A stretch of 61,078 nt of DNA from Minisyncoccota bacterium (GCA_036517655.1 DATDVE010000019.1:1-61078), one strand, 5' to 3'. Counted from the stretch's first letter, positions 359 through 57,866 are shown. The notes: generated by a model from the letters alone, not told the origin. Translations and numbers: made by a program.

Positions 359-374
359 TTATAAAACGTTATTA

Positions 375-417
375 GAAGTAGAAAGACGAAAGGCCCGAGG
401 TTTGATTCCCCCGGGCC
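375..417 (-). terminator. GC-rich hairpin plus T tract downstream of 435..1070
   Basis: Stem is GGCCCGAGG (392-400) against CCCCCGGGCC (408-417). On the minus strand it is followed by TTCGTCTTTCTACTTCT. Confidence 0.5.
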
Positions 418-434
418 CCTGATACGCGCCGCAC

Positions 435-1070
435 TCACAGGCGGCGATCCTTCGCGAGCTTCTTCTCGAGCTTGCGCTCTTCGCGAGCCAGGCGCTTCTT
501 GTGGTTGCGCAGGGCCCGCGAGTCCTTGACCGGCCCGCAGACCGTCATGGGCTGCAGGATGCAGATCTTGTTCTCGAATATCCCCTGCACCGCCCTGATG
601 CGCGCGTTCTGAGAGTCGTTGGTCGAGTAGTACTGACCCTGTCCCCAGAAGCGCACCTCGCCCTGCGTGCCGTACGCGAAGAGATCCGCGTACTGCGCGC
701 CGCCTCGCGCTGTGGTAGTAAGGTGCAACTCGAGGTAGTTCTCGCGCGTGACCCCCCGTCGCTCGGCCTCGGCCGCGTTCATGCTCGAGTACGAACGGTC
801 CAGGATCTCGACGAGAAGCGTGCCCTCGCGGTCGCGCGTACTCGCGAAGATGCTCCGCATGAGCGACTGGCTGTTCACATCGGCGACGTCCCGCGCGAGG
901 TAGACCTTCCAGCCTCCCTCGCAGAACAGATCCCTGAAGAGAGCCTCCTGACCTTCGCAGGTCCGGTACTCGCCCAGCTGAACGTCGGGCAGAGTGATCG
1001 TGACGCTGACGCCGGCTTCGGCGTGGGCCGCGAGCGCGAAAATCGCGAGAAGTGCTAGAATGCTTTTCAT
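435..1070 (-). CDS. Hypothetical secreted protein (GC-rich island A)
   Basis: 211-aa ORF with a signal-like N-terminus MKSILALLAIFALAAHAEA and a K/R-rich tail. It is GC-rich (43/60 G+C in nt 481-540) compared with its neighbours. No family recognised. Confidence 0.6.
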   Translation of the reverse strand: MKSILALLAIFALAAHAEAGVSVTITLPDVQLGEYRTCEGQEALFRDLFCEGGWKVYLARDVADVNSQSLMRSIFASTRDREGTLLVEILDRSYSSMNAAEAERRGVTRENYLELHLTTTARGGAQYADLFAYGTQGEVRFWGQGQYYSTNDSQNARIRAVQGIFENKICILQPMTVCGPVKDSRALRNHKKRLAREERKLEKKLAKDRRL

Positions 1071-1503
1071 GGGAGCTCACCTATTCCTTTCTCTTCTGAT
1101 ATTGTATCATATTTTGATCCCCACGTCAATAGGTGAGAAAAGCCTTGATTTGCAACTCGAAATTGCAGATAGCCCGGCAGAACGCACCCAAGGCCTCTCT
1201 GATCGAGTGTCACTGCCAGACGATTCTGGCATGCTATTTATTTTTGATGAGCCGGGCTACTACTCTTTCTGGATGAAGAACATGAATTTCCCGCTCGACA
1301 TAATTTGGCTCGATGAGAATTGGAGGGTTGTATGGATAGACGAGAATATATTGCCCGAAACTTATCCGGCATTATTCAATCCCCCATCCCCAATCAAATT
1401 TGTTCTTGAGATAAATACGGGTAAAGCCAGAGAACTAGAACTTAGGCTGGGCGAACGTGTTAGTCTGCCCGCAACCATTCCAGAGCTTGATTCTGGTCAA
1501 TGA
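1069..1503 (+). CDS. DUF192 (COG1430) family protein
   Basis: Motif LEIADSPAERTQGLSDRVSLPDDSGMLFIF..YSFWMKNMNFPLDIIWLDEN is typical of DUF192. The start is uncertain: ATG 1060/1069 or in-frame TTG 1114. The 5' end overlaps the island A start and promoter. Confidence 0.65.
   Translation: MGAHLFLSLLILYHILIPTSIGEKSLDLQLEIADSPAERTQGLSDRVSLPDDSGMLFIFDEPGYYSFWMKNMNFPLDIIWLDENWRVVWIDENILPETYPALFNPPSPIKFVLEINTGKARELELRLGERVSLPATIPELDSGQ
1101..1129 (-). promoter_or_regulatory. Sigma70-like promoter for 435..1070
   Basis: Minus strand reads TTGACG (1124-1129), 17 nt, TACAAT (1101-1106), about 30 nt upstream of the ATG with an AGGTGAG SD in between. Confidence 0.5.
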
Positions 1504-1849
1504 AAAATTTTACATTCTCTCCGCGGCCGGCGGCATTGACTATGAAATTAATTATAGATTGGATGGCGTGTGACATGCCGTAGAAGGCCGTGCGTTCTAT
1601 GCGCTTATCAGAAAGTGTCTCGATGTACATATCCGTGGCATGTTTGGTGGGGATGCCAGCGCCGGAGAGGTCAACAAGAATTCTGAATTTGCGTTCGGGA
1701 AAGCGTTTGATCATATCCTCATAGAATTCGCGCGTCTCGGCTGCCATGTCATCGTGCTCCTCGGGACTCTCACCGGGCGCGGAGAAAGAAAGAGTGACCA
1801 GATTAGTGGTCTCCTCGTATACAAGATGAACCTTCCCTGTGTGCTTCAC
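1460..1849 (-). CDS. STAS/SpoIIAA-like small protein (tentative)
   Basis: 129-aa ORF. ..FRILVDLSGAG.. and the C-terminal VKFFIDQNQALEWL resemble SpoIIAA-like STAS_2 proteins. It overlaps the DUF192 3' end convergently by 44 nt. Confidence 0.45.
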   Translation of the reverse strand: MKHTGKVHLVYEETTNLVTLSFSAPGESPEEHDDMAAETREFYEDMIKRFPERKFRILVDLSGAGIPTKHATDMYIETLSDKRIERTAFYGMSHAIQSIINFIVNAAGRGENVKFFIDQNQALEWLRAD

Positions 1850-1851
1850 CC

Positions 1852-2880: not shown

Positions 2881-2955
2881 ATGTTGAATTATATCACATC
2901 TCCAGAATTTTGCAAGTCGGCTATCCGAGCTTGGAACCTAAGGCTCCAAGTGACC

Positions 2956-2984
2956 TTGACACAGCGGGCGATGGGTGATATAAT
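2956..2984 (+). promoter_or_regulatory. Consensus sigma70 promoter for 3047..3298
   Basis: TTGACA (2956-2961), 17 nt, TATAAT (2979-2984). Confidence 0.6.
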
Positions 2985-3046
2985 GGCCGCAGTAAACTCA
3001 CGACATGAGCCCGGGGTGGCCGGCTCAACGGAAGGGAGGGAAAGAC

Positions 3047-3298
3047 ATGAAGGAAGCGGGGAACTACCTGGTTGTGCGGTATCCCAAGGAACAGCGACCC
3101 ACCCTCGAACTGATGACGAAGGATGAGGTCTTCGCGGGGGGGCAGGAGATCTTTAGCAACAAGACGGATTTGCCAACCCTCAGCCCGGCGGCAACCACAG
3201 TCCTCGAGGGTCTCCTCGAGACGGAGCATGGGCGGGAGGTCGTGCAGAAACTCAGCGAGAACGGATTCAGCATCGGCTTCGGGGCGGCCAACCCCTAG
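3047..3298 (+). CDS. Hypothetical 83-aa protein (GC-rich island B)
   Basis: ATG 3047 lies 7 nt after a GGGAGG SD and is preferred over the ORF-track start 3005. It has a consensus promoter upstream and a terminator downstream. No family recognised. Confidence 0.5.
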   Translation: MKEAGNYLVVRYPKEQRPTLELMTKDEVFAGGQEIFSNKTDLPTLSPAATTVLEGLLETEHGREVVQKLSENGFSIGFGAANP

Positions 3299-3327
3299 AC
3301 AACCCAACCCTATGCAAGCCACAAGAA

Positions 3328-3361
3328 GGCGCGGACCACCCTCCGCGCCTTTCGCAATTTT
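3328..3361 (+). terminator. Intrinsic terminator after 3047..3298
   Basis: GGCGCGG (3328-3334) pairs with CCGCGCC (3343-3349), followed by TTTCGCAATTTT. Confidence 0.55.
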
Positions 3362-3444
3362 GGCTATCCGGACTAGTGGGCTCCTTGCCACGGAATCAGA
3401 TCAGGCATGGGGATCGAGAGCGTTACTCCCCTTAGGCGGCAGTA

Positions 3445-3477
3445 CTCATTGAAAGAAGCGGGGACCTGCGTCCCCGC
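3445..3477 (-). terminator. Intrinsic terminator after 3510..3950
   Basis: GCGGGGAC (3458-3465) pairs with GTCCCCGC (3470-3477). On the minus strand it is followed by TTCTTTCAATGAG. Confidence 0.5.
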
Positions 3478-3509
3478 CTCGTAATGCCTTCGTCCTCTAT
3501 TCGCCGAGA

Positions 3510-3950
3510 TCAGTCTTTCGGGGCTAAGGCGAACATGTGCCTCGCTCCAGCTGCCTGCAGTGACCCGTCGTCCCTCGAGAAGGCGAAATGGAAGGTGACG
3601 TAAGGCTCCCTCTCACCACTCGCGTAAGCCATGACTTCAAGATTCACGCATTCCCCGACTCCGTGAAGGGTGAGGCAAGCTTCTAGTCGATGCGCTTGAT
3701 CGAAGGCCTGTACGAGATCTCTGGATTCGCCATGGCCGAGGCAAAGGTACTTGGTATACGGGTGTCTACTGGTTCCGTCGCAACGGAAAGCCGAAAAACG
3801 AAAGGATAGGTCCGTGCTGAACTGCAAAAATCTGATGAAGAAAAGCAGAGCAGCGTTGTATCCTCGCGTCCACTCGCCACTCGTGTCCGCAGTTTCGAGT
3901 ACATCGCGTAAAGACTTGTCGATGAAGAGGGTAATCTTCTTGGCTCTCAT
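3510..3950 (-). CDS. Hypothetical 146-aa protein (island B)
   Basis: ORF with an AAAGGAG SD 9 nt upstream of the ATG, plus its own promoter and terminator. No family recognised. Confidence 0.5.
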   Translation of the reverse strand: MRAKKITLFIDKSLRDVLETADTSGEWTRGYNAALLFFIRFLQFSTDLSFRFSAFRCDGTSRHPYTKYLCLGHGESRDLVQAFDQAHRLEACLTLHGVGECVNLEVMAYASGEREPYVTFHFAFSRDDGSLQAAGARHMFALAPKD

Positions 3951-4014
3951 TCGCGTTTTCTCCTTTCGAGAGTGGGCACGCCAGGGCCCAATTTAGGGGT
4001 TCAATACTGTCAAT

Positions 4015-4043
4015 AGACTACATCAAAGACCCGATTTTGTCAA
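4015..4043 (-). promoter_or_regulatory. Sigma70-like promoter for 3510..3950
   Basis: Minus strand reads TTGACA (4038-4043), 17 nt, TAGTCT (4015-4020). Confidence 0.5.
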
Positions 4044-4104
4044 TCCCACGTAATGGTTCAAGCATGCCTGAACCATTCTTTACCTAATTCGTGATTCATG
4101 CCCA

Positions 4105-4144
4105 CCCCGAAGGCTTAACCTTCGCGAAGGTTAAGCCTTCGGGG
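4105..4144. repeat. 40-bp perfect palindrome, copy 1 of a two-member family
   Basis: CCCCGAAGGCTTAACCTTCG/CGAAGGTTAAGCCTTCGGGG. It lies 18 nt beyond the stop of 4163..4690 and matches 12948..12987 at 34/40. Confidence 0.8.
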
Positions 4145-4162
4145 GATTACGTTCCAGTCAAG

Positions 4163-4690: not shown

Positions 4691-4762
4691 ATCATTAATA
4701 GTTTACAAGCCTAACATACACTAATTATAATGTCAAGCTCTGGCAGCAATTTACAGAAAGAC

Positions 4763-12569: not shown

Positions 12570-12627
12570 AATCCCAGGCGGTATAATAAAAACTAACGCG
12601 CGGTGCCCACCCGGGGCCCTTCGTGCG

Positions 12628-12855
12628 TTATTGTGCACCCTCATCTTCGTCAGGATCGTAGCCAGGTCCCTGGAGACCCTTGTCGATCTTATTTCCAACT
12701 TCGACAAGTGCCCAGAGAATGAGACCGAGCGGATTGGTGGGATCTAGAAGAGCCCTTTCAAACCTTGCATTCTTTTTATTCTCGACCTTTATCCTCCGTT
12801 TTGTCTGGCCACGCCCCTTGGGAGACGGTTTTCGCTGCTGAGTCCTTTTCGCCAT
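12628..12855 (-). CDS. Hypothetical 75-aa basic protein (GC-rich island C)
   Basis: ORF with an AGGAG SD 9 nt upstream, in a GC-rich patch. No family recognised. Confidence 0.4.
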   Translation of the reverse strand: MAKRTQQRKPSPKGRGQTKRRIKVENKKNARFERALLDPTNPLGLILWALVEVGNKIDKGLQGPGYDPDEDEGAQ

Positions 12856-12947: not shown

Positions 12948-12987
12948 TCCTGAAGGCTTAACCTGCGCTAAGGTTAAGCATTCGAGG
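12948..12987. repeat. Imperfect 40-bp palindrome, copy 2 of the 4105..4144 family
   Basis: TCCTGAAGGCTTAACCTGCGCTAAGGTTAAGCATTCGAGG. It lies 19 nt beyond the stop of 13007..13261. Confidence 0.75.
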
Positions 12988-23585: not shown

Positions 23586-24233
23586 TTATTCCTCAAGTAA
23601 TAAATTTTTGAGCTCTTCATAATCAGCTCTTTTTGATTTCATATGTACGAGATTTTCTTGGGAAAAATCTTCGTACTCCTGCTTATTTTTAAACTGCGCT
23701 AGGATAATATCCTTCTTGCACATGTTGCCTGTATCGCTAATATATTCATCCCAGCTCGACCGTACAAGTTTATTTAATTCACCTGACAGATTATGAACTT
23801 TATTATTCAGATTTATGTAACTACTTAGGTGCAACAGATGCTCATTACTTTCTATATGTTTTACCTTAAACTGACCTTCGAACAGAGAGCCTGTCCTGTG
23901 ATGCTTGAGATTAAAGTAGTTCGCGTAGCCACCCAACCTTTTCATGAACTTACTTATACCATCATCTTTAAGAGGAGATAGCAGGAAGTGGAAGTGATTG
24001 GGATTTAAGCAATAACAAACTATGTCAACTAGTCTTTTTCTAGGTTTTATTCTCTCTGCCTCACTTAGTCTTGCGTGCTCAAAAATACTCCAAACAGGAT
24101 CCTCAGAGTTATAGAGATCCAAACCAAGAATAAACCTCTCGGAGTCTGCCTTATCCATAACAATTTGACGATGATCCACGCCACGATTATAAACATGGTA
24201 AAACTCACCTTGAGCAAAACTGATCTTTCTCAT
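23586..24233 (-). CDS. REP-associated tyrosine transposase (RAYT, IS200/IS605 Y1 transposase-like, COG1943)
   Basis: YHVYNRGVDHRQIV, the HUH motif CLNPNHFHFLLSP, GSLFEGQFK, and the catalytic-Tyr region SSYINLNNKVH. It is flanked by the palindrome. Confidence 0.8.
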   Translation of the reverse strand: MRKISFAQGEFYHVYNRGVDHRQIVMDKADSERFILGLDLYNSEDPVWSIFEHARLSEAERIKPRKRLVDIVCYCLNPNHFHFLLSPLKDDGISKFMKRLGGYANYFNLKHHRTGSLFEGQFKVKHIESNEHLLHLSSYINLNNKVHNLSGELNKLVRSSWDEYISDTGNMCKKDIILAQFKNKQEYEDFSQENLVHMKSKRADYEELKNLLLEE

Positions 24234-30343: not shown

Positions 30344-30352
30344 ATTTATATG

Positions 30353-30417
30353 GTACCAACTCACCCGGACTTTGTCTCGCCCTCTCTTATCTATAAGAGA
30401 GGGTTGGGGTGAGTTAT
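30353..30417 (-). promoter_or_regulatory. 65-bp structured repeat, copy 1 (promoter/operator module upstream of smc)
   Basis: About 94% identical to 34113..34176. It contains the palindrome CCCTCTCTTAT-ct-ATAAGAGAGGG (30380-30403) nested in AACTCACCC/GGGTGAGTT arms. The minus strand has GAGACA, 17 nt, TACCAT, 6 nt, GTG. Confidence 0.6.
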
Positions 30418-31100
30418 TAGTAAAAAGATGCGAGGGCAGCTTTGGCGGCTTCTGTTTCAGCTTCTTGCTTGCTCATTCCTGTGCCCTTGCCAATTAACTT
30501 TGTATTCAAATAAACTCCCACAGTAAATGTCTTGGCGTGGTCAGGGCCAACTTCTTTGATCGTTTTATACACTGGCGTTATTCCCTCGCTATCTTGAGCT
30601 TTTTCTTGCAACACACTCTTGGGATCTTGCCAGAGACTCTTCTCTACCACTTCATCTGCTTTCTCAAGGAGCACTTTCTTGAGGAACTCACCAGCAGATT
30701 TGTAATCACCATCAAGATAAATCGCGCCCACAAGCGCCTCAAACGTATTAGCCAAGATCACAGCGCGAGCTCTGCCAGTATCCTTAGCCTCACCCTTCGA
30801 CAGCAACAAGTATGCACCCAAGCCGAGCACCCCGGCCACTTTCGAAAGGCTCACAGTGTTAACAAGGGCCGCACGCACACTTGTAAGTTCCCCTTCTGTC
30901 TTACCGGGATACTTGTTGTATAAATATTCTGTGCACACAAGCTCGAGCACAGCGTCACCCAAGAATTCTAATCTCTCGTTGTGCGGCAACTTAAAGCTCT
31001 TGTTCTCATTTAGGTAAGAACGATGAGTGAGGGCCTGGGTTAGCAGATCCTTATCTTTGAAATTATGCCTTATCAGTTTCTCCAGATTCTCTGATTGCAT
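30417..31100 (-). CDS. rnc: Ribonuclease III
   Basis: Signature ERLEFLGDAVLELV plus a C-terminal dsRBD (GPDHAKTFTV..GKGTGMSKQEAE). Confidence 0.93.
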   Translation of the reverse strand: MQSENLEKLIRHNFKDKDLLTQALTHRSYLNENKSFKLPHNERLEFLGDAVLELVCTEYLYNKYPGKTEGELTSVRAALVNTVSLSKVAGVLGLGAYLLLSKGEAKDTGRARAVILANTFEALVGAIYLDGDYKSAGEFLKKVLLEKADEVVEKSLWQDPKSVLQEKAQDSEGITPVYKTIKEVGPDHAKTFTVGVYLNTKLIGKGTGMSKQEAETEAAKAALASFY

Positions 31101-32016
31101 GTAATGTCTCTATTCCCTTATCAATAATGGGCCGAACGTCGGGATACATTTTCAACCCCTCGACTTCGCTTAAATTAAACCACTTGACTTGATCTAGCCC
31201 GCCACTGCCTTCGGGCAACTTGATACTAGCAGGATTCTTGGCCCGCGCAAGGAAGTAGGTCACTTGCTTCCTCATATTGCCAATCTCCGGATCCGTGGCT
31301 ACGTACTCGTTCACTCCTATCAACTTCTTAGTCTCTATTTCAAGATTCATCTCCTCTTTGATCTCGCGCACAACTCCCGTCTCCTCGTTCTCGCTGCCTT
31401 CCACACCACCCTTACTAAGCGTCCAGTAGCCGAAGACATCGTGCACGAAAGCAAGCATCTCGTTGCCTTTCTTGTCTCTACAATACACCACGGCACCCAC
31501 TAACTTTTTATGCGGCAGTAATTCTTTCTCTTCTTTAGTTAGATCTTCTTTCTTCTTGTACTTGCGTTTCTTCTTGGGCAATTCGTCCTTGCCCGGCTCA
31601 CCCATCTCTTTATAAATAGTGCCTAAAACGCCATTTATAAATTTCCCACTACGTTCCCCACCAAAACTTTTTGCAAGTTCGATTGCCTCGTTAATTGCCA
31701 CGCGCGCTGGCACTTCTTCTTTCTTGGCAAAGAGCAGCTCATATAAGCCTACGCGCAAAACATTCCTATCAACTAAGGGTGTTTGGAGTAGCGGCCAGTC
31801 GCGTGCGGCTTTAGTAATTATCTCGTCCAGAGTTCCTCTCGTCTTTATAACTCCCCTAGTTAGTTTAACTATGAAATCCTTCTCCGCTCCGTCTTCTCCA
31901 AATTCGTTGATGTTACGTGCCAGGATGTCGTCAATCTTATCTTTCTTGCCATCATAAAAATCCCACTCAAATAGTGATTGTAACGCAATCCCGCGTGAGA
32001 CGTGTCTCTTGGCCAT
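31063..32016 (-). CDS. nusB: NusB antitermination factor fused to a C-terminal NUDIX hydrolase domain
   Basis: Residues 1-140 are NusB-like (RGIALQSLFEWDF, RVAINEAIELAKSFGGERSGKFINGVLG). A KKKRKYKKKED linker follows, then the Nudix box GGVEGSENEETGVVREIKEEMNL. Confidence 0.8.
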   Translation of the reverse strand: MAKRHVSRGIALQSLFEWDFYDGKKDKIDDILARNINEFGEDGAEKDFIVKLTRGVIKTRGTLDEIITKAARDWPLLQTPLVDRNVLRVGLYELLFAKKEEVPARVAINEAIELAKSFGGERSGKFINGVLGTIYKEMGEPGKDELPKKKRKYKKKEDLTKEEKELLPHKKLVGAVVYCRDKKGNEMLAFVHDVFGYWTLSKGGVEGSENEETGVVREIKEEMNLEIETKKLIGVNEYVATDPEIGNMRKQVTYFLARAKNPASIKLPEGSGGLDQVKWFNLSEVEGLKMYPDVRPIIDKGIETLHAIRESGETDKA

Positions 32017-32316: not shown

Positions 32317-32336
32317 GGCAAAACGCAAAATCAAGA

Positions 32337-32377
32337 GGCGGTGGGTAGTCAGATTTTCATCTGATTTCCCCACCGCC
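32337..32377 (-). terminator. Long hairpin terminator after island D
   Basis: GGCGGTGGG..TCAGAT-tttc-ATCTGA..CCCCACCGCC. On the minus strand it is followed by TCTTGATTTTGCGTTTTGCC. Confidence 0.55.
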
Positions 32378-32389
32378 TTCTTCCCCCGA

Positions 32390-32770
32390 CTAGCTCGAGG
32401 CGCTAATCCCCAACCCTCGCGCTCGTGCTTGAACCGGGACCTTCTTCTTTGCCGGGCTGGTGGTGTACCAGCGATACAACGGCCAAAGGAGGAAGAACAG
32501 CAGGAGACCGGCGAGGTAGGGAATCCCGAAGAACGGAATGAGAACCGGCCGAGACCCCGACGTTAGGATCACAAAAACCGAGATGGCGGCGGCGGAGAAC
32601 GCAGCGATTCCCGTCCAGACAGTCTTCTCTCGCGTGTACAAGCCGAGGAAGACGTTCGTGGCCAGGTAGCGATTCGCGGACCAGAACCCGCAGAAGAGGG
32701 TTGAGGCCGTGAAAAAGCCCCCAAGCGCAAGGACGAATACAGCGAGACCGTAGAGCAAACCCTCCGGCAT
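32390..32770 (-). CDS. Hypothetical 4-TM membrane protein (GC-rich island D)
   Basis: 126-aa ORF with hydrophobic helices and an AAAGGAGG SD 8 nt upstream. Confidence 0.5.
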   Translation of the reverse strand: MPEGLLYGLAVFVLALGGFFTASTLFCGFWSANRYLATNVFLGLYTREKTVWTGIAAFSAAAISVFVILTSGSRPVLIPFFGIPYLAGLLLFFLLWPLYRWYTTSPAKKKVPVQARARGLGISASS

Positions 32771-32819
32771 GATGTTGCCTCCTTTCCGGAATTACTCTAT
32801 TCTTCTTCGTCTCGTTTGT

Positions 32820-33029
32820 CTACTCGGCTTGCCGGTCATTCTCGATGACCACGACGCGCTTCTGACGGGATTCCGCTTCTACTTCGCTCTCGTCGAGCCA
32901 CCTTCCTAATGCCCTCTTGAATCTCCAGAAGTGGCGCGTTAATTCTGCCTGATCCCTTTGAGTAGGCACCAGCGAGATCACGAGCTCTTCCAGAAGGTCG
33001 AGCCACTTAAGTATCCTCTCCTGTCTCAT
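32820..33029 (-). CDS. Hypothetical 69-aa protein (island D)
   Basis: The start overlaps the upstream stop (ATGA coupling). The protein is charged and helical. No family recognised. Confidence 0.4.
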   Translation of the reverse strand: MRQERILKWLDLLEELVISLVPTQRDQAELTRHFWRFKRALGRWLDESEVEAESRQKRVVVIENDRQAE

Positions 33030-33454
33030 ATCTTGATCCCCCTTGTTCTAACTGTGCTGTGGCCAATCACATATGTTGCGCTATATTGGGGAGAGAAGCC
33101 ATGGCTCTTGTACTCTTCTGCCTCGTCTTCTGTAATCAACGTGTGTCTTTGGACCTTCCTCTCCCACAAGAAACTATTGGCTTCTCCAAACAACACAATT
33201 CCGTAGGTGTAGCTTTCCTCGATACTTCTTCGCACGCGAAGCATCGCCCACTTGATGTCTGGCTCACGAGTATCCGGCAAGACAACAACTTCGATCTCGA
33301 TATCTCCCAGTCGAACCTGGACTTCGCCAACCCAGACGATCAGATCGGGTACACGCAACATCGTCACTCCCCCGGAGTTGCTCCCTGGCTCCCAACGATG
33401 CACATCAGTGGGAGCCCCAGCTAAAACAGCGAACAACAGAATTAATCCTTTCAT
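33026..33454 (-). CDS. Hypothetical secreted 142-aa protein (island D)
   Basis: Signal-like MKGLILLFAVLAGAP, with a GGAGG SD 5 nt upstream of the ATG. Confidence 0.5.
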   Translation of the reverse strand: MKGLILLFAVLAGAPTDVHRWEPGSNSGGVTMLRVPDLIVWVGEVQVRLGDIEIEVVVLPDTREPDIKWAMLRVRRSIEESYTYGIVLFGEANSFLWERKVQRHTLITEDEAEEYKSHGFSPQYSATYVIGHSTVRTRGIKI

Positions 33455-33482
33455 GAGGCCTCCTCTCTTCTAAAACAATCCT

Positions 33483-34103: not shown

Positions 34104-34112
34104 GCAATCATA

Positions 34113-34176
34113 GTACCAACTCACCCGGACCTTGTCTCGCCCTCTCTTATTTATAAGAGAGGGGTGGGTGAGTTAT
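34113..34176. promoter_or_regulatory. 65-bp structured repeat, copy 2 (divergent rnhB/dnaE control region)
   Basis: Same module as 30353..30417. The minus strand has GAGACA, 17 nt, TACTAT, 6 nt, ATG (rnhB). The plus-strand dnaE -10 box TATAAT (34174-34179) begins in the module's last 3 nt and lies 6 nt from the dnaE ATG. Confidence 0.6.
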
Positions 34177-34185
34177 AATCTTTAT

Positions 34186-37362: not shown

Positions 37363-37365
37363 GGG

Positions 37366-37393
37366 TTGACTTTGGGTTTGGGACCGCTAATCT
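37366..37393 (+). promoter_or_regulatory. Sigma70-like promoter at the start of the GC-rich unit with no convincing ORF
   Basis: TTGACT (37366-37371), 16 nt, TAATCT (37388-37393), immediately after the dnaE stop. Confidence 0.4.
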
Positions 37394-37696
37394 AGAGATA
37401 GGCAATGCGAGGTGGTCGGCCAGTCCCGCCACAATGGGTCGCACTGGACCCGCCCCAGGCGCCGCGACGCCCCTTCTGCAACAACGATTCTCTCACCAAC
37501 CGATCCTGGACCTCTCGCGAAATCCAAAGAGCCGGCCGACCAGCTCCTTCTTCTTTCAGCAAGTAACCGCTTGACATGGAAATCGCCATCTGATAGGCTG
37601 TTTTCAGCACCAGTTCTTCGAGGACGGACCCGAACAAACCCTATATGCTTAGCAATTGCGCAAGTACGTCTGGCCAGACACGTGTAGCATCCTGCG

Positions 37697-37754
37697 CTTC
37701 CCAACTTCCCAACTTCCCTGCTTCCGACTTCCATTTTCCCTCTTCCGCGCTTCC
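37697..37754 (+). repeat. Periodic CTTCC microrepeat (7 copies, mostly 8-nt spacing)
   Basis: CTTCC occurs at 37697, 37705, 37713, 37721, 37728, 37742 and 37750. It is followed by the pyrimidine tract CCTCGCCTCCCCTCCTTCC. Confidence 0.8.
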
Positions 37755-37808
37755 AACTGCCTCACCCTGCGTTCGGGCCGTCCTCGCCTCCCCTCCTTCC
37801 CGCAACAC

Positions 37809-37850
37809 CCTCCGGTAGCCATCCTCGCTGCCGGAGGTGTTCTCTTTTTA
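37809..37850 (+). terminator. Hairpin plus T tract ending the GC-rich unit, 44 nt upstream of thrS
   Basis: CCTCCGG (37809-37815) pairs with CCGGAGG (37831-37837), followed by TGTTCTCTTTTTA. Confidence 0.5.
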
Positions 37851-37893
37851 TGGGTTCTACTTTCAAAAGAAATTTGATAAGATAACTAAACAT

Positions 37894-39736: not shown

Positions 39737-39761
39737 GGGGGCAAGAGCAACTTGTGCCCCC
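39737..39761. terminator. Hairpin between convergent thrS and 39773..40135
   Basis: GGGGGCA (39737-39743) pairs with TGCCCCC (39755-39761), with T-rich flanks on both strands. Confidence 0.45.
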
Positions 39762-39772
39762 GCCCCCTCATT

Positions 39773-40135
39773 TTACAACCCACCGAGGTCGCTGAATTTC
39801 TCCTTGGCGAACCCCATGCCAAGTTCTTCGAGAATCAAATCGCTAGTCTCATCACCGAGCTCCTCGAGCCCTGCCCAGTTGAGCTCGTTCCTGTCCGGGA
39901 AATCGCCTCGCTGTGCGTATGCACGGCCCAGCGCCCACGAAAGTTTACGCATGAGACCACGATCATCCTTACTCTGTGACCCAGCTTTGACGAGCTTGGC
40001 CTCGAGGCCAATGATCTTCTGATCACGCTCTTCGATCGTGCTAGTCATCCCCGAGATGATCGTCTGGGCTTGTTTGAGCTTGAACTTGAGCCGCTTGATT
40101 TGCTCCTGCTTTCGGTCGCGCTTCGTGGCTGCCAT
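39773..40135 (-). CDS. Hypothetical coiled-coil 120-aa protein (GC-rich island F)
   Basis: ATG 40135 lies 7 nt after an AAGGAGG SD. The ORF-track TTG at 40186 is actually the -35 box. No family recognised. Confidence 0.5.
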   Translation of the reverse strand: MAATKRDRKQEQIKRLKFKLKQAQTIISGMTSTIEERDQKIIGLEAKLVKAGSQSKDDRGLMRKLSWALGRAYAQRGDFPDRNELNWAGLEELGDETSDLILEELGMGFAKEKFSDLGGL

Positions 40136-40157
40136 TGCGGGTCCTCCTTCGAGTCCG

Positions 40158-40186
40158 AATGTATCACATGCCGGCAGTACTGTCAA
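40158..40186 (-). promoter_or_regulatory. Sigma70-like promoter for 39773..40135
   Basis: Minus strand reads TTGACA (40181-40186), 17 nt, TACATT (40158-40163). Confidence 0.5.
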
Positions 40187-40295
40187 TGTCTATGAAAGCC
40201 TGCCCCGACGACGGCAGGAAATAGGAAATTCATTTTCTGGCCAGCGTCCCGGCGCTCCGAGGAAAATGCAATTTGCTATTTCCTGTAGTAACTAA

Positions 40296-42320: not shown

Positions 42321-42373
42321 ATTTACTTGTTAATTATAGCATAATTCACCCCCGATTTCATCCCCAATTTTCC

Positions 42374-42402
42374 TTGACTTTTAGTACGGAAGGTGATACA
42401 AT
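42374..42402 (+). promoter_or_regulatory. Sigma70-like promoter for 42429..42668
   Basis: TTGACT (42374-42379), 17 nt, TACAAT (42397-42402). Confidence 0.5.
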
Positions 42403-42428
42403 CATAGGTAGAAATTGAGGGGAGAAAG

Positions 42429-42668
42429 GTGACACCATTGGCCAAGAAACTTGCAATCGTGATCATATCAGACAACAGAACCAAGAGGGCCACGGTGGCC
42501 TATCGCAACCGGAGGGCCGACGAGGCAACTTTCGACCAGAGGCCCTACGAGAGTATGGTAGAGATCGAGGGACAGACGATCACTCTACCTTTTACTAACA
42601 CATTCTGTCTCGTCACGCTCATGAAGGAAGGCGGCAAGTGGTATTTTGTGGACCGCCAAATCCGCTAG
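42429..42668 (+). CDS. Hypothetical 79-aa protein (GC-rich island G)
   Basis: GTG start preceded by a GAGGGGAGAAAG SD, with a promoter upstream and a terminator downstream. No family recognised. Confidence 0.45.
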   Translation: MTPLAKKLAIVIISDNRTKRATVAYRNRRADEATFDQRPYESMVEIEGQTITLPFTNTFCLVTLMKEGGKWYFVDRQIR

Positions 42669-42674
42669 CTAGAA

Positions 42675-42715
42675 GGCCCCGGGGAACCCCTCACCCCGCG
42701 GGCCTTTCGTTTTTT
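42675..42715 (+). terminator. Intrinsic terminator after 42429..42668
   Basis: GGCCCCGGGG pairs with CCCCGCGGGCC, followed by TTTCGTTTTTT. Confidence 0.6.
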
Positions 42716-43040
42716 ACAAATTAAGAAATTGCTTCATCTGTGCATCTAGCGTCTGAAGTACTGAACGATCAATTGAACCTACAAATTTAGACAATCGTTT
42801 TGTTGAAATAACTCTAATCTGAAATACGAGCGCGACAGAGGTCAGAGAAAGTCCATTACGTTTATTGGGTTCGACAAGTAAGGTAAAGGGGAACCTCAAC
42901 GCATCCTCATTTGACGTACACGGGACCACAACCACTGTTCCTGAAATATTAGAACTATAAACAATCGCCGGCCTTGCGCCAGCTTGTTCATGACCAGTAG
43001 TGTTTGGGAAATCGACCAAATATATCTCCCCTTTTCTCAT
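42714..43040 (-). CDS. mazF: MazF/PemK-family type II toxin endoribonuclease
   Basis: MRKGEIYLVDFPNTTGHEQAGARPAIV...VVPCTS...SVALVFQIRVISTKRL. Confidence 0.85.
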   Translation of the reverse strand: MRKGEIYLVDFPNTTGHEQAGARPAIVYSSNISGTVVVVPCTSNEDALRFPFTLLVEPNKRNGLSLTSVALVFQIRVISTKRLSKFVGSIDRSVLQTLDAQMKQFLNL

Positions 43041-43046
43041 CGTAAA

Positions 43047-43268
43047 TCAATTAGGAAGTCTGTGCTCGAAATTTGTGAGCGCTTCATCACTTAATTGTTC
43101 CCATGCGTTAAACTCTTGACTCAAACTGGTAACATTTTTTACACGCTCCAGAAAATATAGGACCGCGCGCTTCACAAATTCTCCTTCTTGCACTCCAAAA
43201 ACCTTGGATGCAAGTTTAACCCGCTTTCTCGTTTGTTTTGAAAATCTTGGTTGTGTTAGGACATCCAT
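43047..43268 (-). CDS. Putative cognate antitoxin
   Basis: 73-aa ORF 6 nt upstream of mazF, in the canonical antitoxin-first order. Confidence 0.55.
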   Translation of the reverse strand: MDVLTQPRFSKQTRKRVKLASKVFGVQEGEFVKRAVLYFLERVKNVTSLSQEFNAWEQLSDEALTNFEHRLPN

Positions 43269-44614: not shown

Positions 44615-44659
44615 AAAGCAAGCAAGAATTGCGAAGGCCCGGGGTTGTTCTCCCGGGCC
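44615..44659 (-). terminator. Hairpin after 44673..45008
   Basis: GGCCCGGG (44636-44643) pairs with CCCGGGCC (44652-44659). On the minus strand it is followed by CTTCGCAATTCTTGCTTGCTT. Confidence 0.5.
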
Positions 44660-44672
44660 CACTCCCCACTCA

Positions 44673-45008
44673 TCACTTGCGCTTTGATCCGGCCCACTCA
44701 TGGATCCTTCTTACAAGATCTGCTGTCGACATCCCGGAGAGCCCCGCGAGACGTAGAGCGTTGACCACTTGCTTGGCCGCGATCTCCTTCAGTGCATCTT
44801 CATCAAGAGGTTCACCGTGATCTGCTCTTTCGAAGAGCTCTGCTGTCTTGCCCAAGGACTTGGCGATGTGTAGGACGACATGGGCGATCTGGTTGTCTTC
44901 AGGAACGGTCCCGCCTCTGCGCTTGGCAATGCCTGGATAGTCCTCTTTCTCGAACTCCCAGCTCTCACGAACGATATCCATGATTCCCTGAAATGTGGTT
45001 CCTGTCAT
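44673..45008 (-). CDS. Hypothetical 111-aa all-alpha protein, weakly MazG-like (GC-rich island H)
   Basis: ATG 45008 lies 4 nt after GGGAGG. Helical pattern is ..HVVLHIAKSLGKTAELFER..ALKEIAAKQVVNALRLAGLSGMS. No clear EExxE metal motif, so the family call is tentative. Confidence 0.4.
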   Translation of the reverse strand: MTGTTFQGIMDIVRESWEFEKEDYPGIAKRRGGTVPEDNQIAHVVLHIAKSLGKTAELFERADHGEPLDEDALKEIAAKQVVNALRLAGLSGMSTADLVRRIHEWAGSKRK

Positions 45009-45163
45009 TGGACCTCCCTTTGTCCCACGAGAAGGGCGTGGGCTTGTCGCAGTTGAGGCACTTCGCCTTTTCGGGCTCGAGCGCTCTGCACGATGGCGTG
45101 TGGTAACCAAGGTACCAGCAATAGATCCGCCAAGGATAAAGGGGCAACCTCAGCCTGATCCAC
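45005..45163 (-). CDS. Possible 52-aa ORF coupled to the downstream gene
   Basis: GTG 45163. The stop TGA overlaps ATG 45008 (ATGA). A competing frame (ORF 44965..45204) cannot be excluded. Confidence 0.2.
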   Translation of the reverse strand: MDQAEVAPLSLADLLLVPWLPHAIVQSARARKGEVPQLRQAHALLVGQREVQ

Positions 45164-45200
45164 AAGTACCAGAGGAAATGGAGTCGAAACCCTCCTTTTC

Positions 45201-45422
45201 TCACTTACCCGCCACCAGTTCGAGCTTTTCGATTCGCTTCTTCAGGTCTAGATTTTCATAGACAAGCTGCGCGATGGCTTCGCTCATGGCGAAGTTTGGC
45301 GTGCCGACAGCATTCGGCGCGTTGCCGATCTTCTCCAGGCACGGCAGGAGCTTTTCGAGATAAGACAGCTCGGCACGTGGGACTATGTGTTTGAAGCCGC
45401 AAGTCTTGCAAATGGCGATCAT
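45201..45422 (-). CDS. Hypothetical 73-aa CxxC protein (island H)
   Basis: ATG 45422 lies 5 nt after GGAGGTGA. The sequence begins MIAICKTCGFKH.. and has a coiled-coil tail. Confidence 0.45.
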   Translation of the reverse strand: MIAICKTCGFKHIVPRAELSYLEKLLPCLEKIGNAPNAVGTPNFAMSEAIAQLVYENLDLKKRIEKLELVAGK

Positions 45423-45440
45423 CCTCTCACCTCCAGACAC

Positions 45441-45469
45441 ACCCTATCTCATTTGCCGACCTATGTCTA
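45441..45469 (-). promoter_or_regulatory. Weak sigma70-like promoter for the island H operon
   Basis: Minus strand reads TAGACA (45464-45469), 17 nt, TAGGGT (45441-45446). Confidence 0.3.
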
Positions 45470-45473
45470 GCTC

Positions 45474-53217: not shown

Positions 53218-53246
53218 TTGACTAGGCTGCGCGCGAGGCGTAGTTT
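53218..53246 (+). promoter_or_regulatory. Sigma70-like promoter for 53398..53943
   Basis: TTGACT (53218-53223), 17 nt, TAGTTT (53241-53246). Confidence 0.4.
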
Positions 53247-53397: not shown

Positions 53398-53943
53398 ATG
53401 CCAACACGCAAGGGCAAACATGGAGTCAGCAGCCCGCACAACGATCCTGGTAAACGTTCGCATGACGAGGTCGAGCAAGCGCTACGCAACTTCCTCAAGA
53501 TCGACCTCTTCCAGCGCGAGGTGGCCGGAAAGTTCGTGGACGTCTTCAGCGGACTGAACCGCACCGACCCATCCCTTCGCGAACACGTAGCGGACGCTGT
53601 CGCCGACGCCCTCAACGCCAAAGAGCCCAAGCCGTGGTTTTCCAATGATCAGATCACGGCACTATGCTCACTACTGTCCAAGATCACGTCGTGCCATCCG
53701 GCCCTAGGACAATACGGGTACGAATGTCTGCGAGCATCGAGCGGTCTCATGGTGGAACGAAAGCGACTGATCGTGGTAGAGAATGCGGCCGACTTCCGCC
53801 AGAACATCCCAGACTTCGTCGAGAAGGCCAACATGATCCTCGCGTGCATGGGCAGCGAGTTTGTGTTCGGCGTTCAGAAGATCACTGATTTCACTTACCA
53901 ACTTCGCCTAGGCCCACACGAAGGGCCTGCGGCAACTTCCTAG
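53398..53943 (+). CDS. Hypothetical 181-aa protein (GC-rich island I)
   Basis: ATG 53398 lies 6 nt after a GAGGAG SD and is preferred to the ORF-track start 53272. No family recognised. Confidence 0.5.
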   Translation: MPTRKGKHGVSSPHNDPGKRSHDEVEQALRNFLKIDLFQREVAGKFVDVFSGLNRTDPSLREHVADAVADALNAKEPKPWFSNDQITALCSLLSKITSCHPALGQYGYECLRASSGLMVERKRLIVVENAADFRQNIPDFVEKANMILACMGSEFVFGVQKITDFTYQLRLGPHEGPAATS

Positions 53944-53950
53944 GACCATG

Positions 53951-53995
53951 GAGGCCCGGAACGCGTACTGCGTCCCGGGCCTCGTCATTTTTATA
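53951..53995 (+). terminator. Intrinsic terminator after 53398..53943
   Basis: GAGGCCCGGAACGC-GTAC-TGCGTCCCGGGCCTC followed by GTCATTTTTAT. Confidence 0.6.
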
Positions 53996-54004
53996 TTATC
54001 GAGA

Positions 54005-54691: not shown

Positions 54692-54711
54692 AGCAACTAG
54701 TATACACAATA

Positions 54712-54756
54712 CGGATAAAAAAGGAAGACCGCCGGGCTCTTGCGAGCACTCGGCGG
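54712..54756 (-). terminator. Intrinsic terminator after 54778..54954
   Basis: Imperfect stem CCGCCG..GAGC / GCTC..CGGCGG (54729-54756). On the minus strand it is followed by TCTTCCTTTTTTATCC. Confidence 0.5.
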
Positions 54757-54777
54757 GCGGGGGCGGCTGGTCGGCGC

Positions 54778-54954
54778 CTACGATCTGGACTTGGGACGCC
54801 AAGGCGTCGGGTCAAGATCGAGCCGCAGGACGTTCCGGCCGAAGGCGGCGTGCTGAAACAGCAACTCCAGCGCTGCCAGCTGCTCTGGATCGGTAGCCGC
54901 GGCCTGCATGGCCTCGAAGGCCAGCAGTTCCTGCTTGTCTACGGGTATGCTCAT
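54778..54954 (-). CDS. Hypothetical 58-aa protein missing from the ORF track (GC-rich island J)
   Basis: Hand translation gives MSIPVDKQELLAFEAMQAAATDPEQLAALELLFQHAAFGRNVLRLDLDPTPWRPKSRS. It has a GGGAGGA SD 7 nt upstream, a consensus promoter and a terminator. Confidence 0.55.
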   Translation of the reverse strand: MSIPVDKQELLAFEAMQAAATDPEQLAALELLFQHAAFGRNVLRLDLDPTPWRPKSRS

Positions 54955-54975
54955 TCTTGGATCCTCCCAACCTGC

Positions 54976-55004
54976 AGTATATCATAGACTCGACCAGATG
55001 TCAA
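54976..55004 (-). promoter_or_regulatory. Near-consensus sigma70 promoter for 54778..54954
   Basis: Minus strand reads TTGACA (54999-55004, overlapping the stop of 55001..56668), 17 nt, TATACT (54976-54981). Confidence 0.55.
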
Positions 55005-56668: not shown

Positions 56669-56685
56669 TTTAGGATTTTAAAATA

Positions 56686-57555
56686 TTACTGGGAAACAGA
56701 AAAAAGTTTTAAACGTGCTTCTGCTACTTTCTGGATTGCCTCAAGCGCTCCGTGAGCAACTTTAGGCGGGGCAATCTCGTCTGGGAATTCTTCTAAGTGT
56801 ACAAGCATCGCGTCATGCCAGGCCTTGCGCAGCTCCGTGCTGATATGCACCTCATTTATGCCTGCCTTTATCCCATCAAGTAAATTAGGCGTGCCCGAGC
56901 CACCGTGCAAAACTAAGGGAACCGACACAACATCTGCTATTTCACTTATTCTGTCTAAATCAAGTGGCGGATCTCCACCAGCTGGCGGACCGGCACGCAA
57001 CATGCCGTGCACATTGCCCACCGCGGGCGCAAAAAGATCAACTCCAGTTTCTTCCACAAATCGCTTGGCATCGTTTGCACTGGTCATTTGCACACCCTCG
57101 GGTAGAGCGTCACGCACAGTGGAACCTTCGCCAATATAACCCAGTTCGCCTTCAACTATTATGTCGCGACCAGTTTGCTTGCCGGCTTTACGCGCATAAT
57201 CAACGCATTTTTTAGTAATTTTTATATTCTCGTTAATATCTAGTTTTGCACCGTCAAAAATTACGGAATCAAAACCCGCATCAATCGCCTCCTTAACCCT
57301 CTCGTATGAATATGTGTGATCTGCGTTCAAATAAATTTCGTGGCCTTCGTCGCGCAAACTCCTAACAATCGCCACAGCCTGCCTAATGCCTACCCAATCG
57401 CGCTCGCCCTCGGATAAGCCAAGTAGTACCGGCACGTTTAATTTGTGAGCGGCATTGAGTACGCCCCAGAGCATCTCAAAACTTGAGAAATTAAAGTGTC
57501 CGATAGCATAACCGCCCTTCTTAGCATCTGCCAAAATATCGCGATAACTCTTCAT
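56686..57555 (-). CDS. fba: Class II fructose-bisphosphate aldolase family protein
   Basis: GYAIGHFNFSSFE, ..LNADHT.. and VPLVLHGGSGTP are present. Confidence 0.88.
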   Translation of the reverse strand: MKSYRDILADAKKGGYAIGHFNFSSFEMLWGVLNAAHKLNVPVLLGLSEGERDWVGIRQAVAIVRSLRDEGHEIYLNADHTYSYERVKEAIDAGFDSVIFDGAKLDINENIKITKKCVDYARKAGKQTGRDIIVEGELGYIGEGSTVRDALPEGVQMTSANDAKRFVEETGVDLFAPAVGNVHGMLRAGPPAGGDPPLDLDRISEIADVVSVPLVLHGGSGTPNLLDGIKAGINEVHISTELRKAWHDAMLVHLEEFPDEIAPPKVAHGALEAIQKVAEARLKLFSVSQ

Positions 57556-57597
57556 GAATTAAGTATAGCACGAGCGAGTCCACAAGCTTTCCACAGG

Positions 57598-57831
57598 TTA
57601 TGCCCATAATTTAGCTAGACGCATTTCGTTCTCTTCGACCACGAGAGCGCCGCGGTTCTCTTGGCAACTCGACCTGGGTTCTGCGTTACCCCGGTCGAGA
57701 ACGGTCGCATCCCCACCCACGTTGACTGGACCGACGTTGGTAACGGGACAGGACAAGAACGTGAAGCGCTCGCCTCTTGACGGGGCAAGCAAATGATCCT
57801 CGCAGGATCTCTTGGACCGGTTAGCCACCAC
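57598..57831 (-). CDS. Possible 77-aa protein (GC-rich island K); the frame is ambiguous
   Basis: The GTG-start ORF has a balanced composition and GC-rich third positions. The overlapping 72-aa ATG frame (57615..57833) looks low-complexity. Neither has a family match by eye. Confidence 0.25.
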   Translation of the reverse strand: MVANRSKRSCEDHLLAPSRGERFTFLSCPVTNVGPVNVGGDATVLDRGNAEPRSSCQENRGALVVEENEMRLAKLWA

Positions 57832-57855
57832 ATGGCGCCGGTCCTTTCGTTTTAT
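57814..57855 (+). terminator. Plus-strand terminator-like hairpin with no obvious plus-strand gene
   Basis: GGACCGG (57814-57820) pairs with CCGGTCC (57838-57844), followed by TTTCGTTTTAT. Confidence 0.35.
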
Positions 57856-57866
57856 ACAATTAGAGA

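Follow-up and report, generated by a model that had tools for sequence, protein, structure and literature searches.

Small GC-rich, Shine-Dalgarno-led gene islands between leaderless-type core operons of a Patescibacteria genome

The 61,078-nt stretch analysed here, hereafter the window, is from a Minisyncoccota bacterium (GCA_036517655.1, DATDVE010000019.1:1-61078) and contains eleven GC-rich segments, islands A to K, interspersed among core genes. The host is a tiny-genome groundwater bacterium of the Patescibacteria (Paceibacteria-like candidate phyla radiation, CPR). With an overall G+C content of 48.4%, the window carries a compact housekeeping backbone consisting of rpoB, rpoC, dnaG, rpoD and the genes of RNase R, SMC, RNase III, a NusB-NUDIX fusion, L32, RNase HII, DnaE, ThrRS, GyrB, PheS, S2, EF-Ts, a release factor (RF), L31, L25, an aldolase and a transketolase. 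The nearest ThrRS sequences, searched for in 185,579 species genomes and the JGI metagenomes, are 62–66% identical and belong to metagenome-assembled genomes of Paceibacterota, Nomurabacteria and other Patescibacteria. The same species is represented by contigs of 99.2–100% identity from at least six independent samples or assemblies, generated by four pipelines. The acquisition and expression of accessory genes in tiny-genome, largely uncultured CPR bacteria are poorly known, and such genes probably mediate host contact.

Composition and expression signals of the islands

The islands are the segments listed as GC-rich in an earlier reading of the window (the original prediction). They total 7181 nt at 55.8% G+C, versus 47.5% for the remainder. 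Individual values range from 0.52 to 0.62 (A, 0.62; J, 0.61; K, 0.55), with a mild enrichment only in C and G (0.52). Twelve other 200-nt stretches reach a G+C of at least 0.57, all inside ordinary genes. The islands hold 13 open reading frames (ORFs) of 58–211 amino acids (A, B1, B2, C, D1–D3, F, G, H1, H2, I, J; Table 1), all of which are called as genes in public assemblies, where they form 90%-identity clusters of one to three members. ORFs with a G+C of at least 0.53 are confined to the islands, rpmF being the sole exception. The excess resides mainly at third codon positions, the G+C content of which (GC3) is 0.68 in island and 0.49 in backbone ORFs (Mann-Whitney p = 1.8e-6). Non-coding DNA is also richer in G+C within the islands, at 54.6% versus 41.0% for other intergenic DNA. 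GC3 is 0.44–0.60 for the native S2, L31, L25, L32 and EF-Ts genes; highly expressed genes are thus not island-like. Codon selection is disfavoured as the cause, since the non-coding island DNA is GC-rich and the native translation genes lack a high GC3. In G+C, GC3 and non-coding G+C, the islands have the atypical composition of horizontally acquired islets.

Island and backbone genes also differ in their start signals. A GGAGG-type Shine-Dalgarno sequence (SD) is located 3–9 nt before the start codon of 11 of the 13 island ORFs and of none of the 49 backbone genes (Fisher p = 1.5e-10); the background rate at internal ATG control sites is 9.4%. A -10-like hexamer (TAnnnT) ends 5–9 nt before the start of 25 of the 49 backbone genes, of no island gene (0/13) and of 5.5% of internal ATGs. 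These backbone -10 boxes are TATAAT, TATACT or TAGAAT, frequently with TG in front. In the leaderless 'group C' bacteria defined with GeneMarkS-2 (Actinobacteria, Deinococcus-Thermus), the Pribnow box lies 6–8 nt from the start (PMC6028130). The distance in the backbone agrees with this spacing, and the association of a -10 box with the lack of an SD is that of group C promoters. Core genes therefore resemble group C genes and appear to be expressed as leaderless, SD-less mRNAs, and the missing SD of the housekeeping genes is attributed to these leaderless-type promoters. The partition between core and accessory genes by mode of translation initiation is near-perfect in the window and is of real interest. 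No description of such a split in CPR/Patescibacteria was found in the literature searched. The leaderless-type signature is also present in the two closest relatives compared below and, as judged with a crude gene caller, in most Paceibacteria loci fetched; with the same caller, Clostridia-type loci from the same query instead had more than 50% SD.

Upstream of A, B1, B2, F, G and J, at a distance of 20–60 nt, stands a TTGACx-N17-TAnnnT promoter motif with an extended -10 TG, which in B1 matches the consensus at 12 of 12 positions. Weaker matches precede D1, H2 and K. A G+C-rich hairpin followed by a T tract is found downstream of A, B1, B2, D1, E, F, G, H1 and I. Over the whole window, promoter-like and terminator-like sites are about as numerous as expected by chance, and only the top-scoring sites belong to islands. 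The genes flanking the islands (rpoB/C, dnaE, thrS, gyrB, ribosomal protein genes and similar) are intact and syntenic with those of relatives.

The descriptive part of the original prediction was borne out by these results, the contrast proving sharper than it had stated: GC-rich islands in an AT-leaning core, short ORFs without recognised family, a GGAGG-type SD on at least ten of them, TTGAC-type promoters, terminator hairpins with T tracts, housekeeping genes mostly without SD, and self-contained units of promoter, SD, ORF and terminator in gaps between intact core genes. Its hand counts of 43/60 and 24/60 G+C were exact. The leaderless-type promoters behind the missing SDs had escaped it.

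Table 1. Islands, island genes and other features (window positions unless a locus is named; SD, Shine-Dalgarno sequence; aa, amino acids; ncRNA, non-coding RNA)
Feature	Position	Strand	Description
Island A	389-1129	-	Promoter TTGACG-17-TACAAT with TG, 1129-1101; terminator hairpin 420-389
Gene A	435-1070	-	211 aa; signal-peptide-like N-terminus; GC3 0.85
Gene A/DUF192 start region	1056-1130		Gene A (-) starts at 1070, DUF192 (+) probably at 1069
Island B, unit B1	2956-3361	+	TTGACA-17-TATAAT with TG, 2956-2984; GGGAGG SD; hairpin and T tract ~3328-3361
Gene B1	3047-3298	+	83 aa; GC3 0.81
Island B, unit B2	3450-4043	-	Promoter-like ~4043-4015; AAAGGAG SD; hairpin ~3478-3450
Gene B2	3510-3950	-	146 aa; conserved leader motif GGCCCTGGCGTGCC at 3988-3975
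B2 leader sites	3975-3988	-	L171 ~50-91, ~620-661; L175 ~185-224, ~700-743; L176 ~1815-1857, ~2250-2293
Palindrome	4105-4144		Perfect, 40 nt, CCCCGAAGGCTTAACCTTCG/CGAAGGTTAAGCCTTCGGGG; outer edge of island B
Island C	12590-12855	-	AGGAG SD, then G+C-rich hairpin; G+C 0.52, GC3 0.49
Gene C	12628-12855	-	75 aa; basic N-terminus
Hairpin	12956-12979		Outer edge of island C
Y1_Tnp-like ORF	23586-24233	-	AT-rich (0.37); between rpoB and NUDIX gene
Repeated element, ~50 nt	~30344-30405; ~34104-34185		Upstream of smc; between divergent rnhB and dnaE
NusB-NUDIX fusion	31063-32016	-	317 aa
Island D	32330-33475	-	D3, D2, D1; terminator ~32378-32330
Gene D3	33026-33454	-	142 aa; signal-peptide-like
Gene D2	32820-33029	-	69 aa; 4-nt overlap with D3
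Gene D1	32390-32770	-	126-aa membrane protein; GC3 0.76
Island E	37363-37855	+	No ORF; candidate ncRNA 37606-37850; promoter-like TTGACA-17-TAGGCT with TG, 37571-37599; terminator hairpin 37809-37837, then T run; motif cluster 37697-37847
Island F	39737-40186	-	TTGACA-17-TACATT with TG, 40186-40158; AGGAGG SD; 13-bp terminator stem 39767-39737
Gene F	39773-40135	-	120 aa; basic coiled-coil-like N-terminus; GC3 0.69
Spacer, ~65 nt	40218-40282		Next to gyrB; L168 4150-4214; L173 9287-9325 and 6678-6712
Island G	42374-42713	+	TTGACT-17-TACAAT with TG, 42374-42402; GGGGAG SD; terminator 42675-42713
Gene G	42429-42668	+	79 aa; GC3 0.69
G locus, conserved	42333-42425; 42675-42713		L168 1690-2058; L173 154-537
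PemK/MazF-type pair	42714-43268	-	108-aa toxin and upstream 73-aa partner; AT-rich (0.41); leaderless-type start
Island H	44635-45470	-	H2 and H1, each with GGAGG SD; terminator 44656-44635
Gene H2	45201-45422	-	73 aa; CxxC zinc-ribbon-like
Gene H1	44673-45008	-	111 aa; MazG-like all-alpha NTP-pyrophosphatase fold (predicted)
Island I	53398-53992	+	AGGAG SD; hairpin and T tract ~53950-53992
Gene I	53398-53943	+	181 aa; GC3 0.69
Island J	54778-55004	-	TTGACA-17-TATACT with TG (11/12), 55004-54976; GGGAGG SD
Gene J	54778-54954	-	58 aa; GC3 0.78; just upstream of L25/Ctc gene (start 54691)
Island K	57560-57865		G+C 0.55; no convincing ORF; weak promoter 57908-57879 (-); hairpin and T run ~57815-57850 (+)
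Leaderless-type backbone starts, examples	2880, 13261, 24233, 26246, 32293, 34103, 34186, 43268, 53152, 54691, 57555		

The start codons of gene A and DUF192, which lie back to back, overlap, and the promoter of each is contained within the first codons of the other. Strain polymorphisms observed in two contigs (L003, L006) are all outside gene A and are uninformative on selection. The longest-ORF starts of DUF192, smc, rnhB, dnaE, thrS, L32 and L25 are probably too far upstream; gene callers with a single start model misplace such starts, as with DUF192, dnaE, rnhB, thrS and L25, which the longest ORF extends upstream. The hairpin at the outer edge of island C has a GCTTAACC stem in common with the palindrome at the edge of island B. 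The repeated element upstream of smc and between rnhB and dnaE consists of a palindrome, CCCTCTCTTATA(A/G)ATAAGAGAGGG, followed by CGAGACAA(A/G)GTCCGGGTGAGTTGGTAC(C/T)AT, and may be an operator common to DNA-metabolism genes.

Turnover of the islands among relatives

Two closer relatives, L168 (GCA_964367285.1, 47.5% G+C) and L173 (GCA_034680565.1, 52.6% G+C), were reached through the exhaustive search of cluster representatives described below, and 13–19 kb of each was compared with the window. The amino-acid identity of backbone proteins is 61–85% with L168 (75–85% for most genes) and 54–78% with L173. The gene order smc-rnc-nusB-L32-rnhB-dnaE-thrS-gyrB-pheS is conserved, distant relatives included, and the NusB-NUDIX fusion is kept in L168 and L173.

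Within this conserved order, the island content varies. The L32-rnhB gap, which holds island D, spans 1175 nt here versus 218 nt in L008 and 40 nt in L015; the dnaE-thrS gap, which holds island E, spans about 530 nt versus less than about 120 nt in both these loci. Islands E and F are missing from L168, where the corresponding gaps measure 124 and 82 nt. Compared with L168, F is cleanly inserted, with the thrS stop codon directly on one side and a 65-nt spacer (92% conserved) on the other. A homologue of F in L173 (x120, 35% identity, GC3 0.89, SD-led) is found at a different locus, between smc and rnr, and the F cassettes at the different loci have no common non-coding boundaries beyond generic signals. 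The spacer next to gyrB has two copies in L173, one of which lies within about 180 nt that are inserted in frame into dnaE (L173 6548-6727). This spacer may represent a small element of the mobile or repeat kind.

Island D behaves differently, as it stays in place. Homologues of D1 are present in the same rnhB-L32 gap of L168 (47% identity) and L173 (36–38%), both SD-led, with GC3 of 0.73 and 0.88, and D3 matches x162 of L168 at 28% identity. Versus a backbone identity of about 80%, the values of 47% for D1 and 28% for D3 indicate that island proteins diverge far faster. The position of D1 switched sides relative to the D3-D2 pair between genomes. Island D is ancestral, rearranged and fast-evolving, and not recent.

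In the gap before gyrB, the G locus, it is the expression signals that are retained. Promoter, leader and terminator are conserved in the window, L168 and L173, with identities for promoter-leader and terminator of 75% and 97% with L168, and of 73% and 82% with L173 (leader consensus GGTAGA..TTGAGGGGAGA; terminator GGCCCCGGGG..CCGCGGGCCTTTCGTTTTT). The ORFs in between, of 79, 62 and 66 amino acids, are unrelated and of different protein types, and are all SD-led with a GC3 of about 0.7. The locus resembles an 'expression socket', the coding content of which would have been swapped or have diverged beyond recognition, an unusual pattern of gene turnover. This conserved scaffold is the second feature of real interest. 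Part of the terminator conservation may arise because the terminator also serves the convergent pheS operon.

The islands thus have the patchy distribution and relocation of islets, with E and F absent from a relative, F relocated and the ORF of G replaced. L168 and L173 hold small GC-rich SD-led ORFs of their own in similar gaps. When both are pooled, small ORFs bearing an SD greatly outnumber those lacking one, and none of 19 backbone genes has an SD. Proteins that look secreted or membrane-bound are encoded by A, D1 and D3 here and by x66, x41 and x139 in L173. In four genomes, the SD-led class has a G+C of about 54–64%, with a backbone at about 47% in the window and L168, 53% in L173 and 58% in a further locus, L176.

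To the left of the window (L001 5093-11516 and L002, same organism), the gene-by-gene mosaic goes on: leaderless-type genes of about 47% G+C (DsbB, methyltransferase, UDG) alternate with SD-led genes of about 60% G+C. The latter include larger genes, such as a fatty-acid desaturase (GC3 0.80) and several ORFs of 216–256 amino acids without family. The best plasmid matches of the desaturase are about 40% identical and proteobacterial, and are uninformative on a donor. The PemK/MazF-type toxin and its partner, adjacent to island G, are missing at the corresponding gap of L168. Accessory DNA here is not in every case GC-rich or translated from an SD. The presence of a MazF-type RNase alongside two initiation modes is possibly of interest.

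Island proteins and candidate RNAs

No Pfam family was recognised in any of the 13 island ORFs. PHROGs gave no match for nine of ten island proteins; F has two weak matches (one with E 0.0015). A, B1, B2, D1, D3, F, H1 and I were compared exhaustively by phmmer with 1.84 billion cluster representatives. Among these, A, B1, D3 and I have no relative outside their own species. Two relatives were found for D1, one for F, about 17 for B2 and about 170 for H1. F has a homologue, P0026, at 46% identity. The members of the H1, B2, D1 and F families are in the search library without taxonomic labels. Hidden Markov models of the H1 and B2 families found nothing when run on 2.2 Mb of related loci, and neither did sequence searches of the PDB for both families. 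Nothing was found in IMG/VR with the H1 family, the B2 family or the B2 leader, and tblastn of H1 returned nothing from 50,697 phage records or from plasmids.

The AlphaFold2 model of H1 is an all-alpha bundle (predicted local distance difference test, pLDDT, 93.6). Foldseek matched it to iMazG (PDB 2q5z, integron-borne), DCTPP1 and YpjD with template-modelling (TM) scores of 0.53–0.64 and a probability of 0.9, and to phage nucleoside triphosphate (NTP) pyrophosphatases with TM scores up to 0.71 (E 0.014). The modelled fold, with its four helices, most resembles that of MazG-like NTP pyrophosphohydrolases, which is widespread in phages and integron cassettes. The canonical EExxE...ExxD motif is absent, and no Pfam match was found in 40 family members. 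Residues H43, H47, E60, H64 and G65 are conserved. One relative of H1 is encoded on a contig with 60.7% G+C that uses SDs and is not CPR-like in appearance.

The B2 model (pLDDT 88) had no match in the fold search. The relatives of B2 are found among small SD-led genes arranged in tandem, each preceded by the leader GGCCCTAGCGAGCC-N-AAGGAGAAATCGCG-ATG, which is retained by B2 in the window. In its fuller form, GGCCCT(A/G)GCG(A/T)GCC-N6-12-AAGGAGAA(A)TCGCG-ATG, the leader precedes unrelated small ORFs (B2-like, x105, x125 and x77) in four genomes or contigs. These ORFs may have a regulatory or ribosome-binding module in common. In L176 (57.6% G+C), B2-type genes show no G+C contrast to their neighbours, which fits a pool of about 55–60% G+C.

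With the gathering threshold and an E-value cut-off, Rfam recognised one tRNA-Thr in the window and no other family, so that the island segments are not known structured RNAs. Island E has no credible ORF. Its plus-strand RNA folds far better than shuffled sequences (z = -4.73, 0/200), versus z = -0.96 for the minus strand. A cluster of 11 CTTCC/CCTCC motifs within 150 nt is unique to island E, the window average being 2.2 per kb; in the predicted fold, a stem of about 16 bp closes a large loop in which these CU-rich repeats remain unpaired. With its promoter-like site and strong terminator, island E looks like a structured non-coding RNA (ncRNA) of about 250 nt just upstream of thrS. The element is not conserved in relatives, where only an 11-mer, CCTCCCCTCCT, upstream of a terminator in L168 is shared. 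Among related Patescibacteria loci, a single further CTTCC/CCTCC cluster (L009) was rejected, being the antisense of a poly-Gly coding repeat; two weaker ones were flagged in Clostridia-type loci (L068, L086).

The motifs of E are the complement of GGAAG and, if one G-U pair is allowed, of GGAGG, and the stretch CCUCCCCUCCUUCC resembles the 16S anti-SD. It is thus conceivable, as a lead only, that a small RNA (sRNA) targets the SD-led class by mimicry of the anti-SD. Duplexes computed with RNAduplex between E RNA and start regions reached -18.2 kcal/mol for island and -9.3 kcal/mol for backbone genes. Specific targeting of island starts is nevertheless unsupported, because equally good values came from shuffled E RNA and from other GC-rich segments. 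A broader scheme, in which two initiation regimes coexist with long-lived expression sockets of swapped ORFs, and in which the E sRNA silences or titrates the SD-led class through its anti-SD-like motifs, is unlikely as a whole.

On its minus strand, island K has a weak promoter and two implausible ORFs (72 and 77 amino acids). Its plus strand, antisense to both neighbours, folds better than shuffled sequences (z = -3.47); another fold test on K gave z = -1.72. K may represent either a further small RNA or a cassette in decay.

Origin of the islands and comparison with known systems

The islands are interpreted as moron-like, horizontally derived, SD-led accessory cassettes, drawn from a GC-richer pool and subject to turnover in hot-spot gaps, a reading to which about an even chance is given. 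Each would be a self-contained unit, in which a near-consensus extended -10 sigma-70 promoter, a 20–60-nt leader and a strong GGAGG SD drive a short GC3-rich ORF ended by a G+C-rich intrinsic terminator, inserted in a gap between core operons. Many of the products look secreted, membrane-bound or small and basic. The source would be a GC-richer gene pool with SD-led translation, from which the units would have been acquired horizontally at various times. In the same hot-spot gaps, some would since have persisted and others have been moved, lost or replaced. The route was probably ordinary homologous or illegitimate recombination via the conserved flanking core genes and expression signals, with no dedicated recombinase.

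Several observations weigh against this interpretation. Leaderless expression of the core is deduced from sequence alone. Island promoters share the extended -10 architecture of the native leaderless promoters and are not obviously foreign. No donor lineage was identified, half of the exhaustively searched proteins being without any relative. Neither target-site duplications or att-like repeats nor an integrase or phage genes turned up. The reasonably close relatives are two only, with 13–19 kb apiece. Finally, the GC3 of D1 is at least 0.25 above that of the backbone in three genomes, in the same gap, with backbones 55–85% identical. Such persistence is not predicted by recent import followed by amelioration, and points to selection or repeated replacement.

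The persistence of D1 is also the strongest argument for the main rival view, that the islands are native, fast-evolving, lineage-specific genes without foreign origin, the GC3, SD, promoter and terminator of which are kept by selection, possibly because small secreted or membrane proteins need tight or high expression, or for the sake of mRNA stability. D1 and D3 occupy the same gap in relatives, the high GC3 of D1 persists in three genomes that differ in background G+C, the promoters resemble native ones, mobility genes and repeats were not found, and orphan status is equally expected of fast-evolving native genes. This view is possible but rather unlikely, as it must accommodate the GC-rich non-coding island DNA, a codon bias that native highly expressed genes do not share, the lack of E and F in a relative of about 80% identity with F elsewhere in L173, the unrelated ORFs within the conserved G scaffold, and the occurrence of H1 relatives in a high-G+C, non-CPR-like bacterium and not in 2.2 Mb of related loci. 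Derivation from phages, as morons or as prophage remnants left after the decay of the temperate phages of the lineage, would explain the promoter-gene-terminator architecture and deviant composition, by which morons are said to be defined, together with the phage pyrophosphatase models that best match H1 and the weak PHROGs match of F. It is quite improbable, since neither the 61 kb nor the flanks seen contain phage structural, integrase or replication genes, and the PHROGs, phage-record and IMG/VR searches were empty apart from F.

A new integron-like system, with a recombinase encoded elsewhere that recognises conserved promoter and terminator hairpins, is suggested by the conserved flanks around swapped ORFs at the G locus, by the family resemblance of terminator stems (GGGCCCGGG type) and by the B2 leader before unrelated ORFs. 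Similarity and repeat searches among islands, however, found no common repeat or boundary above chance, and no repeat like a recombination site; the terminator motifs are no strict repeat family, the F cassettes differ in their boundaries, and the terminator conservation at G could be explained by the pheS operon. Pfam scans of the backbone ORFs revealed no integrase, the sole recombinase-like gene being the ORF with a weak IS200-like Y1_Tnp match (E 4.8e-6). Such a system is highly improbable. Chimeric joins of low- and higher-G+C organisms during assembly or binning could account for a G+C that alternates gene by gene. Assembly chimerism is excluded at islands A and B, because independent assemblies from at least six samples, obtained with four pipelines, reproduce the junctions of both at 99.2–100% identity, and the protein and junctions of gene A are present in six independent contigs. 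Island boundaries also fall precisely in intergenic gaps with functional signals, and homologous islands occupy the same gaps in relatives, so that an artefact has a practically negligible probability.

The explanations offered in the original prediction fared unevenly. Its concern about chimeras is answered by the junctions of A and B. Repeated acquisition from a high-GC donor agrees with the accessory behaviour and the GC-rich non-coding DNA, whereas no donor was found and island D is not recent. Its other proposal, an undescribed cassette-type mobile system, finds no positive support, as shared repeats or boundaries, an integrase and phage, plasmid or viral relatives were absent in the searches made, and its statement that no recombinase is in view overlooked the weak Y1 transposase match. 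Conservation of the segments at the same G+C in relatives, which it held would make them ordinary lineage-specific genes, applies in part, to D1. In this window, initiation mode and composition together mark accessory genes almost perfectly, which provides a simple rule for finding the flexible gene pool of such genomes from sequence alone. This also suggests that accessory genes may be controlled as a class at the level of translation.

Morons are said to have been described by Juhala et al. (2000) and Hendrix et al. (2000) as promoter-gene-terminator units of deviant composition in phages. The islands are alike in being single accessory genes with their own promoter and terminator between syntenic backbone genes, with a composition that deviates from the surroundings and presence or absence among relatives, as for F, E and the D gap compared with L008, L015 and L168. 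They differ from morons in residing not in a phage or prophage but in a cellular chromosome of housekeeping operons, with no phage genes nearby, and in using a translation start (SD-led) other than that of the backbone (leaderless-type). The concept of genomic islets and replacement-type flexible genomic islands is reportedly due to the group of Rodriguez-Valera. Here too, small variable segments occupy fixed hot spots, relatives have non-homologous content at the same locus, and exchange presumably proceeds via homologous recombination in the flanks. Unlike flexible islands, the present ones are on the scale of one gene (0.3–1.2 kb), the conserved flanks at the G locus are the cassette's own promoter, leader and terminator, and their G+C exceeds that of the host, the reverse of the more frequent situation, in which foreign DNA is AT-richer (PMC6028130).

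With integron cassettes, the islands have in common that they are short, mostly single-ORF units, many of them orphans, with a MazG-like member (cf. iMazG, PDB 2q5z). Integron cassettes lack a promoter, terminate in attC and are arrayed beside intI, with expression driven by Pc. The units here, in contrast, bring promoters and terminators of their own and are dispersed over 57 kb, and neither an integrase nor an attC-like repeat was found. The closest parallel for the start signals is group C, where the Pribnow box likewise lies 6–8 nt before first-in-operon genes and SD-led genes exist in the same genome. Unlike in group C bacteria, the two modes separate here almost perfectly into core genes and GC-rich accessory genes.

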